A DNA stretch of 64,000 nucleotides, from contig JBKCVN010000013.1 of assembly GCA_046317875.1 (NCBI GenBank), positions 3,627 through 67,626 of the forward strand. The letters are read 5' to 3'. Numbering within the stretch: position 1 is the stretch's first letter; every line of letters begins with the position of its first letter. The position numbers and the translations under genes were made by a program. Source of the DNA: Alphaproteobacteria bacterium. GTDB lineage: Bacteria; Pseudomonadota; Alphaproteobacteria; UBA7879; UBA5542. This document shows positions 66 to 1,545 of the stretch, one piece after another. Below the pieces are notes generated by a model. That model did not search any database. It was not told the origin of the DNA and saw only the letters and a program-made list of their open reading frames with translations.

Positions 66-1412
66 GTGAAACTTCCCTCTAAAAAAATTGAATTTGGAGG
101 CAGCCCTTTCCAATCCAATGCGTTAGGGGCTCTCACCGTAACAGATAAAAGTACCGACACTCAATTAGGGTCTTTAGGCATATTTTCTTGCCATTCCCAT
201 TATGTGAGCACAGATAAAGCTTCGATTCCGTATATCCCTCATCTTTTGGAAAGCCTTTCTAATCCTGTAGAGGCCAAAAAGATGACAAGCCTTTTGGATC
301 TTTATTCAGATCCCGACGTTGATTTTAATGAGCCATGCGACCTTAAGTATGAAAAAGTTAGAAAAGCGAAAGAATCCATATGGAACGTAGTAAGATCTCT
401 CGAAAATCCGTTCTCTCGTTTGAACCTTTATCAAAGAATGCCATCTAGCGAAATCCAGCCTTTAATGGATGTATTTAAAGAAATACTCTCTCATGACCTA
501 GAAAATATTCCTTATGCTCTGGGTATATTACAATATGTAAAAAGCTTGGAAGATAGATATACCCACGGGCTTTTTGAGGAAGAGCTTGAAAAACTGTTCT
601 TCAATCCACGCGTTGCAGACAACATAAAGATCCAGTTAATGGAATTTTCACCTTTTGATATTCTTTTAAGGGATTCTATCTTAAAAAGATTGATGAAAGA
701 AAAGACGAGGTGGTTTATGGAGCATAAGTTTACTGAACCTACCAAATATGTTTATGGAGGGTGCCCTTCAATTGACCAACATCCGCTTCTAAGAAATGAA
801 GTATTACAAATATTTCCCTATTTAGAATCAGCCTCAGTGAGTCTCACACTCCCTGATTTAGAGGATTTTTCTAAACATTTATCCAAGACGTCTGTGAAAA
901 AATTAAGTATAAAATTCAATGATACTCGGGAAGAAAAAGAAGTTATTACAGCTCTTACAAAAAGCCTACCTACCTTCCCGCCTAGCGTACAAGAATTGGG
1001 CTTCTTAAGGGACTTTGGCAGCCATACCTTAAAAGCGGCTTCTCTAGAGTTTCTTAAATCATTACTTGATATTGCCCATGCAAAAAAAATAGGTCTTGAT
1101 TTATACCTCCCGATTGGCACCTATCTCAAGATGCTAGAACACATGGCAACACAAAATTATCCCTTATCTCTCCTGGGTCCCTCCACAGTTGGGTGGAATA
1201 AAGATTTTTTATATATAAATTCTCAAGGGGCACAAGTAACGCTAAAAGATCTAGATCCTGATCATCAGGGTAATTATAGAGGGGGTGATTTTGATTTTTC
1301 AGTAGGACCTTTTAATAAAGGTCATGACAGCTGGTTCCTAGAAAAATGCCTTGAGATTGTGGGGCACAAGAAAGATGAAGCCCTAGGCGAACGTGCTGGC
1401 CCTGCTGAATAA
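66..1412 (+). CDS. Hypothetical protein, possibly 5'-partial at the window edge. No recognisable catalytic motif; effector-like, leucine-rich C-terminal half.
   Basis: The six-frame ORF begins at GTG 66, but the same frame is open back to nt 3, so the gene may start upstream of the window. Leu-rich, periodic L spacing in the C-terminal half. No conserved family recognised by eye. Confidence 0.45.
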   Translation: MKLPSKKIEFGGSPFQSNALGALTVTDKSTDTQLGSLGIFSCHSHYVSTDKASIPYIPHLLESLSNPVEAKKMTSLLDLYSDPDVDFNEPCDLKYEKVRKAKESIWNVVRSLENPFSRLNLYQRMPSSEIQPLMDVFKEILSHDLENIPYALGILQYVKSLEDRYTHGLFEEELEKLFFNPRVADNIKIQLMEFSPFDILLRDSILKRLMKEKTRWFMEHKFTEPTKYVYGGCPSIDQHPLLRNEVLQIFPYLESASVSLTLPDLEDFSKHLSKTSVKKLSIKFNDTREEKEVITALTKSLPTFPPSVQELGFLRDFGSHTLKAASLEFLKSLLDIAHAKKIGLDLYLPIGTYLKMLEHMATQNYPLSLLGPSTVGWNKDFLYINSQGAQVTLKDLDPDHQGNYRGGDFDFSVGPFNKGHDSWFLEKCLEIVGHKKDEALGERAGPAE

Positions 1413-1545
1413 CAATCGCCAGCGCTTCGCCTCTCCCAATACAAACAGAACCGATCCCTTTTTTGCCACCGGTTTGCTCTAAGGCATTCAAAAGAGTCAC
1501 AACGATACGGGCACCCGATGCACCTATGGGGTGTCCCATAGCACA
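1395..1545 (-). pseudogene. Degraded remnant of the thiolase C-terminus (about 45 codons), a duplicate of the 3' end of the intact thiolase gene at 2245-3432.
   Basis: Minus-strand translation ...[45 protein letters not shown] matches ...[46 protein letters not shown] of the intact gene. About 85-90% nucleotide identity over roughly 110 nt (1440-1550 versus 2290-2400). The stop codon is lost and the upstream body is absent. Confidence 0.8.

Follow-up and report, generated by a model that had tools for sequence, protein, structure and literature searches.

The minus strand of a 64,000-nt stretch of DNA (contig JBKCVN010000013.1 of the NCBI metagenome-assembled genome (MAG) "Alphaproteobacteria bacterium", sequencing run SRR31514666; the whole stretch is referred to as the window) encodes an intact thiolase (acetyl-CoA acetyltransferase; 2245–3432), followed by a gene for a WG-repeat lipoprotein (1571–2215) and then by a second, decayed thiolase 3′ end (1396–1551). 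How did a housekeeping gene come to have two 3′ ends with another gene between them? The evidence makes it likely that the fragment represents the thiolase's own resident 3′ end, pushed downstream by a heterologous module that consisted of another thiolase 3′ end and the WG gene. The comparison loci were found via close thiolase homologues on contigs, and the ffs gene, encoding the signal recognition particle (SRP) RNA, was placed by Rfam. The thiolases of L001/L002, L003, L004, and L005/L006 are 96% (95% at the nucleotide level), 88%, 85%, and 80% identical in amino acid sequence to that of the window, respectively. A GTDB scan with the thiolase protein was swamped by thiolases of ≤57% identity and yielded no close relative.

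The second 3′ end was evident in several analyses. A repeat search revealed a direct repeat of 139 nt between 1413–1551 and 2262–2400 (81% identity, spacing 849), and blastn with the thiolase 3′ end as query found this as the sole second place in the complete window (139 nt, 80.6% identity, no gaps, E = 1.5e-32). The translated fragment matched positions 78–122 of the 123 positions of Pfam Thiolase_C in frame (E = 4.5e-15), and tblastn with the thiolase protein gave an alignment of 57 amino acids at 74% identity (E = 1.3e-20); in the entire 64 kb, tblastn found no thiolase piece other than the fragment and the intact gene. Alignment to the L001/L004-type gene end assigned 1396–1551 to gene nt 1030–1185, i.e., 52 codons with no insertion or deletion. 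The fragment ends with the codons ATT CAG CAG GGC CAG. The last codons of L001 and L004 (ATT CAG CGG GAT TAA) match these, whereas those of the intact copy and L003 (ATC GAA AGG GAT TAA) do not; thus, the homology extends to the former stop codon, which has mutated from TAA to CAG (1398–1396). The first-pass annotation had recognized this degraded minus-strand duplicate with nearly exact coordinates and was also right about the loss of its stop codon, but the 85–90% identity over roughly 110 nt that it gave was too high, as a value of approximately 95% applies only to a core of 57 nt.

The fragment has evolved differently from a functional gene end. It differs from L001 by 15 synonymous and 10 nonsynonymous codon changes, so that 10 of its 52 codons now encode a different residue, whereas the functional ends of L001 and L004 are separated by 20 synonymous and no nonsynonymous differences. 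Private changes were found at 16 of the 120 sites that are invariant among four functional copies (13%), including a glycine to arginine exchange that turns the CIGGG motif into CIGRG. Constraint on the fragment is relaxed. With only nt 1030–1185 retained, the stop codon lost, and the CIGGG motif altered, it does not qualify as a functional thiolase and is without function of its own; the 75-codon ORF (open reading frame) with a Thiolase_C match is a pseudogene piece and should be annotated as such. A scan of the DNA around the fragment yielded no noteworthy promoter or terminator. Since the window and L001 split, neutral divergence per lineage amounts to 0.07–0.10; the 13% private change equals or somewhat exceeds this value, indicating that the event was not very recent.

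The intact gene itself proved to be a mosaic. Its product, which contains the Pfam domains Thiolase_N (E = 1.9e-80) and Thiolase_C (E = 1.1e-44), is 96% identical to P0001 and matches the NCBI MAG protein MFN7662411.1 exactly. The mechanically called ORF begins with TTG at 3432; the relatives and the NCBI annotation begin with the adjacent ATG at 3429, which is probably the real start, giving a protein of 394 amino acids. The nucleotide identity to L001 was 95% at nt 1–1038 and 82% at nt 1062–1185, whereas the identity to L003 was 73–87% and 93% in the same two segments. The 3′ segment from nt 1062 to 1185 (2245–2368, minus strand) is accordingly of the L003 type, with 92.7% identity to L003 versus 82.3% to L001. 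At fourfold degenerate sites, the divergence to L001 increased from 0.14 (nt 1–1038) to 0.42 (nt 1039–1185), and that to L003 decreased from 0.57 to 0.19; Fisher tests on these shifts gave p values of 1.5e-3 and 5e-4. A maximum chi-squared scan with 242 informative sites placed the breakpoint between nt 1038 and 1062, with L003-type states at 24 of 221 sites to its left and at 17 of 21 sites to its right, and none of 2000 permutations attained the observed value (p < 0.0005). Between these positions lie nt 1039–1061 (2369–2391, minus strand), which are 100% identical in the window, L001, and L003, and represent the inferred interval of a homologous crossover. The L003-like identity carries on for approximately 60 nt into the WG gene. 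Thus, the intact thiolase is a recombinant with an L001-type 5′ part and an L003-type 3′ end, and its annotation should carry a corresponding warning. The L003 thiolase shows a step of its own: nt 651–1038 (10651–11038 of L003; window 2392–2779) are 85–87% identical to the window/L001 type, versus 73% at nt 1–650, which suggests an older recombination tract within that gene. The L004 thiolase runs flat at 75%, with no such step.

The fragment has the opposite ancestry. At sites that distinguish L001 from L003, it agreed with L001 at 16 and with L003 at 5; at those that distinguish L001 from the intact copy, the counts were 14 for L001 and 5 for the intact copy. Four states (nt 1062, 1068, 1128, and 1159) are common to the fragment and L001 alone. 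Read along the sequence, the fragment is of the L003 type at nt 1032 and 1038 and of the L001 type from nt 1062 onward, and the intact copy is its mirror image. These data bear directly on the proposal of the first-pass annotation that the structure arose by tandem duplication followed by decay. An in situ duplication of the gene's 3′ region, alone or together with the WG gene, and subsequent deletion would yield a direct repeat in the same orientation at a distance of 849 bp and would explain the core that is 95% identical. However, tandem copies should be mutually closest along their full length, and here this is true of the 57-nt core alone. Of 90 positions outside it, 32 differ between the copies, and these differences are not random, with L001/L004 states in the fragment and L003 states in the intact gene. 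A tandem duplication would, moreover, place a second WG copy after the fragment, not the large ORF found there (see below). We therefore regard an origin by duplication in place as very improbable.

The core comprises gene nt 1069–1125 (2305–2361 in the intact copy, minus strand), where the two copies differ at only 3 of 57 nt. It includes an arginine to glutamine codon change (CGA to CAA) present in both window copies, at 2325–2323 and at 1476–1474; every relative has arginine at this position (ALERTGG). This unique shared change would be expected from a tandem duplication, but the core is read as the tract of a later gene conversion between the two copies. The CAA codon of the functional gene may have been received from the fragment in this way, or the transfer may have gone in the reverse direction.

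Could the fragment instead be the remnant of an old paralogous thiolase, or a chimera assembled from two strain variants? Many bacteria have several thiolases, and the window derives from a MAG. A paralogue is contradicted by the position of the fragment within the orthologue clade (83% identity to L001, compared with 76% for orthologues at the level of L005), and the window contains no other thiolase-like DNA. As to a chimera, the same sequencing run was also assembled separately, and the resulting Logan contig L105 matches window 556–4193 at 100% identity and covers the thiolase, the WG gene, the fragment, the end of the large ORF, and all junctions; an assembler artefact is not the source of the duplicated structure. 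The fragment is degenerate (stop codon lost, glycine to arginine in CIGGG), unlike the functional gene of a co-existing strain, and L003, which stems from another sample and project, has the same fragment end. Both origins are accordingly highly improbable.

The gene between the two thiolase ends encodes a protein with the Pfam WG_beta_rep domain (E = 2.2e-16; 214 amino acids from TTG, NCBI MFN7662410.1) that is 44% and 53% identical in amino acid sequence to its homologues in L003 and L008, respectively. Its GC content at third codon positions (GC3) of 0.26 is the lowest among the 48 ORFs of the window (mean 0.39, standard deviation 0.047). At the junction with the thiolase stop codon (2216–2244, minus strand), alignment of the WG 5′ ends revealed a degenerate start. 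The ancestral ATG, still present in L003, is now ATA (2240–2238), and a run of nine T (2234–2226) is one base too long for the frame seen in L003 and breaks the signal-peptide frame, so the ORF begins only at TTG 2215 and has lost its signal-peptide start. The stop codon TGA (1573–1571) is premature relative to L008 and L104. Thus, the WG gene looks damaged on the basis of these alignments, although NCBI annotates an ordinary protein. Alignment of the WG 3′ ends of the window, L003, L008, and L104 identified a WG-derived tail beyond the premature stop (1552–1570, minus strand); the WG-derived sequence runs to about 1553 and ends at an illegitimate junction, GAACGG|CGC, at about 1551, where the fragment starts.

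Thiolase and WG genes are also neighbors elsewhere. The stop codon of the thiolase and the start of the WG gene overlap or nearly abut in L003 and also in L008 and L104, which belong to two more distant lineages and have an overlap of 4 nt. Because this adjacency occurs in all three loci, a thiolase 3′ end with its WG gene is a natural donor unit. A scan of JGI metagenomes with the WG proteins gave 11 loci, none of which adjoined a thiolase. A more distant WG homologue (39% amino acid identity) was found in L102 (1–2144) between the C-terminus of an insertion sequence (IS)-type transposase and an AAA_25/helix-turn-helix gene; with such neighbors, the WG lipoprotein family also occurs in overtly mobile contexts.

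From these observations, the following course of events is proposed. The donor module would have comprised the last ~155 nt of the thiolase of another lineage (nt ~1030–1185), a 4-nt spacer, and the WG gene of that lineage. The first junction would have formed by a homologous crossover within nt 1039–1061, a stretch of 23 nt without differences among the types, and the second by an illegitimate event that fused thiolase nt ~1030 to the 3′ tail of the WG gene (window ~1551). We favor a single-crossover (Campbell-type) insertion of a circularized molecule of ~850 bp, which predicts the 849-bp spacing of the repeats, an intact gene with a resident 5′ part and a donor 3′ end, and a resident-type fragment with a donor-type 5′ tip. 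A close alternative would be homology-facilitated illegitimate recombination with one homologous anchor and one illegitimate end. In either case, the replacement end would have kept the thiolase functional, while the old end, freed from selection, would have decayed, and gene conversion would later have homogenized the 57-nt core. Two features of a 3′-end displacement were observed directly, namely a breakpoint inside the gene upstream of the new module and an old end of resident ancestry that was retained downstream.

Comparison with the relatives showed what the fragment adjoins. The common order of genes is mgtE-thiolase-ffs-dnaX-ybaB-recR. On the minus strand of the window, RNase J, a transfer RNA (tRNA), mgtE, thiolase, the WG gene, and the fragment follow each other, and the plus strand holds the 3′ part of a large ORF. 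In L001/L002, 100 nt of noncoding DNA separate the thiolase from ffs, and in L004, this gap measures 42 nt, with the ffs promoter directly after the stop codon; none of these loci has the WG gene, the fragment, or the large ORF between thiolase and ffs. The first-pass annotation had taken the fragment as the mark of an insertion or rearrangement, and this was borne out by these loci, where the thiolase leads straight to ffs. L003 has a WG gene and an opposite-strand ORF of 965 codons in the gap, as in the window, whereas the RNase J and mgtE genes and the thiolase 5′ part that flank it are only ~77% identical between the two. The island extends ~3.7 kb beyond the thiolase stop codon, and its right boundary lies just upstream of the ffs promoter, which is conserved (AACCT-GTCTCTTGTCC). 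The window and L007, a further contig that overlaps it, both end before ffs, so that the right-hand crossover region lies outside both. The DNA is accessory as the first-pass annotation had supposed, being absent from the closest relatives and containing the WG gene with the lowest GC3; that it is also recent did not hold, given 16 private changes at 120 sites, a decayed end shared with L003, and lesions in all three components (WG start and stop, an in-frame TAG in the large ORF, and the pseudogene fragment). When base composition was compared, as had been suggested as a check, the island did not stand out from the remaining window in overall GC content; in GC3 it did so modestly, with low values for the WG gene and the large ORF. 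In L005/L006 (RIFCSPHIGHO2_01_FULL_41_14-like genomes), the gap of ~600 nt is occupied by an unrelated secreted-protein ORF of 66 amino acids on the opposite strand, with a signal-peptide-like N-terminus (insert 11195–11791). The gap between thiolase and ffs looks like a hotspot for secreted-protein genes that are specific to single lineages.

A gene with a replacement end next to acquired DNA is also the architecture left by site-specific integration of a mobile element, as known for e14 and phage 21 in icd; the two copies would then be attL and attR, and the near-identical 57-nt core could be the att core. The 849 bp between the repeats, however, contain the WG gene only, and a domain search and the L003 gene table revealed no integrase or recombinase within 10 kb or in the island itself, whether in the window or in L003. 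Neither the block described below nor WG relatives were found in IMG/VR viral contigs, and the breakpoint (nt 1039–1061) lies just outside the core (nt 1069–1125). Site-specific integration is therefore improbable.

The large ORF on the plus strand (1–1412) represents the 3′ part (469 codons) of a gene for a secreted protein of ~930 codons that runs off the left edge of the window. No stop codon occurs between window base 3 and 66, so that the ORF at 66–1412 is part of this longer gene and is identical to P0122. Its stop codon is at 1410–1412, and its last five codons and stop (1396–1412) are provided by the antisense strand of the convergent thiolase fragment. Both this ORF and the WG gene had been placed inside a duplicated thiolase locus by the first-pass annotation, but the repeats bracket the WG gene only, and the ORF lies outside them. 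L007 (137–2011), which overlaps window 1–486 and is identical over these 486 nt, extends the ORF to ~930 codons; its product has a signal peptide at the N-terminus, and codon 273 is an in-frame TAG where L003 has TGG. NCBI calls the ORF as two proteins of 272 and 658 amino acids. It is the orthologue of the 965-amino-acid protein of L003 (P0121, L003 11967–14864), and its GC3 is the fourth lowest among the 48 window ORFs. The family is small and uncharacterized and has no match in Pfam; among 1.8 billion proteins, it numbers 39 representatives, and scans of GTDB genomes and JGI metagenomes found no relatives. Conservation is seen in the N-terminal ~500 residues, among which D115, C369 and E371 (in the motif DC-x-ETA), E446, and H528 are near-invariant, a pattern from which the product may be a Cys/His hydrolase. 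In an AlphaFold model (predicted local distance difference test score 78), strands and helices alternate in the variable C-terminal part, which bears a weak resemblance to leucine-rich-repeat proteins, among them LegL7 of Legionella.

The end of this ORF links the window to L003 a second time. The bodies of the two proteins are only 36% identical in amino acid sequence, whereas stretches of the N-terminal part of the ORF are 94–96% identical between the two genomes, and a 65-nt block (1331–1395) that encodes most of the last 26 residues is, together with the last ~30 nt of the fragment, ~98% identical to L003. By blastn, window 1331–1423 aligned with L003 11956–12048 over 93 nt at 96.8% identity, with one mismatch in the last 83 nt. 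The 26-residue tail is not present in the 37 other representatives of the family, and the block has a GC content of 49%, versus 38% for the ORF body; for these reasons, the tail looks like local DNA into which the ORF reads. An RNA encoded by the block was considered and rejected, as it matched no Rfam family and folding z-scores were around zero on both strands; otherwise, the only local Rfam matches were ffs in the relatives and tRNAs. The 58-nt spacer of L003 was likewise tried as a decayed form of the missing part of the fragment, with a similarity no better than that to shuffled sequence. In view of the identities of the block, the N-terminal part of the large ORF, and the thiolase, the locus has exchanged DNA between the lineages of the window and L003 more than once.

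This exchange allows another history, in which a ready-made composite of thiolase 3′ end, WG gene, fragment, and large ORF entered from an L001-like lineage as one piece of ~3.9 kb by ordinary homologous recombination, in the thiolase on one side and in the ffs/dnaX region on the other. The fragment would then remain a displaced gene end, but not this genome's own. Such an entry would explain why parts of the island are closer to L003 (98% for the block and 94–96% for stretches of the N-terminal part of the large ORF) than the flanking genes at ~77%, why L003 has the decayed end of the fragment too, and why the private divergence of the fragment is at or above the neutral value for one lineage. 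Against it, the breakpoint in the intact gene lies within ~10–30 nt of the 5′ boundary of the fragment, as expected from a mechanistic link between them, in a gene whose remainder is L001-like at 95%, and it is with L001 alone that the fragment shares its four states. We consider a single entry of the composite unlikely, although less so than duplication, site-specific integration, or a paralogous or chimeric origin.

Displacement of the resident gene end thus remains the preferred explanation, but several observations weigh against it. The donor-type signal at the 5′ tip of the fragment consists of two sites only, and one of them, T1038, also occurs in L004 and L005. At the junction GAACGG|CGC, just 2–3 nt of microhomology (GG/CGG) are possible with either parent. 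The fragment differs from L001 at 29 of 156 positions, somewhat above the simple neutral expectation from the split of the window and L001. L003 is without most of the fragment, but the last ~30 nt there share the TAA to CAG change and four other changes; because L003, with a thiolase that is not of the L001 type, carries the same decayed end and block, at least one further transfer between lineages is needed, and the displacement may have occurred outside the direct ancestors of this genome. The DNA downstream of the fragment (block and large ORF) is unlike what follows the thiolase in L001 and L004, and the resident context before the event is unsampled. Finally, only three loci bear the island or are partly informative, and all of them are metagenomic contigs.

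A bolder and rather doubtful extension of the displacement reading is that the gap between thiolase and ffs serves this uncultured alphaproteobacterial clade as a hotspot for the exchange of secreted-protein cassettes. Three anchors of 93–98% identity would bracket hypervariable bodies, i.e., the WG protein (44% amino acid identity) and the C-terminal two thirds of the large ORF product (36%). The first anchor joins the thiolase 3′ end and the signal-peptide region of the WG gene, the second joins the 65-nt block and the end of the fragment, and the third is the N-terminal part of the large ORF. If this were true, the fragment would be a piece of a portable homology arm, and variant cassettes would be swapped between lineages by homologous recombination.

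The scar is of a known and ordinary kind and calls for no new mechanism. In genomic islands at the 3′ ends of tRNA and transfer-messenger RNA (tmRNA) genes, a direct repeat of the gene 3′ end brackets the acquired DNA. The thiolase locus shares with them the 3′-end repeat around acquired DNA and an adjoining small-RNA gene (ffs), but its target is protein-coding, no integrase is present, and the identity of the repeats is 81%, as opposed to ~100%. In E. coli icd, the e14 element or phage 21 supplies an alternative 3′ end, and the native end is kept as the icdC pseudogene (PMC13626634, citing Hill et al. 1989). As in icd/icdC, the thiolase gene stays intact, a truncated native end lies beyond the insert, and the two copies are diverged direct repeats able to recombine. 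The e14 element is, however, a 15-kb prophage with a site-specific recombinase and SOS-induced excision, whereas the present insert of 849 bp has one lipoprotein gene and no recombinase, and its crossover looks like general homologous recombination. For the "orphan" 3′ ends of rhs, contact-dependent inhibition (CDI), and type VI secretion system (T6SS) effector genes, displacement via homology-facilitated illegitimate recombination was suggested (PMC5361080, citing Jackson et al. 2009, de Vries & Wackernagel 2002). There as here, the homology anchor lies in a conserved gene part, and the new 3′ module displaces the old one, which keeps a conserved stretch; the transfer of composite Rhs/T6SS arrays between strains by homologous recombination is a further likeness. 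Unlike those systems with their variable toxin domains and immunity genes, the anchor here is a housekeeping thiolase, both ends code for one and the same terminal part of the enzyme, and a WG lipoprotein gene serves as the cargo. The locus would thus be a base-resolved natural case of gene-end displacement outside toxin loci and prophages, in which the 3′ end of a housekeeping gene served as the homology anchor for the acquisition of an island. The scar dates and delimits this small accessory island, with its WG lipoprotein and large orphan secreted protein, in an uncultured alphaproteobacterium.

Across the whole window, Rfam identified tRNAs at 4859–4942, 35526–35597, 38298–38370, and 55496–55569. 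The rpsB small RNA family (RF01815) matched 34416–34507, upstream of a putative rpsB region, with a score of 42.7 bits versus a threshold of 40 bits.

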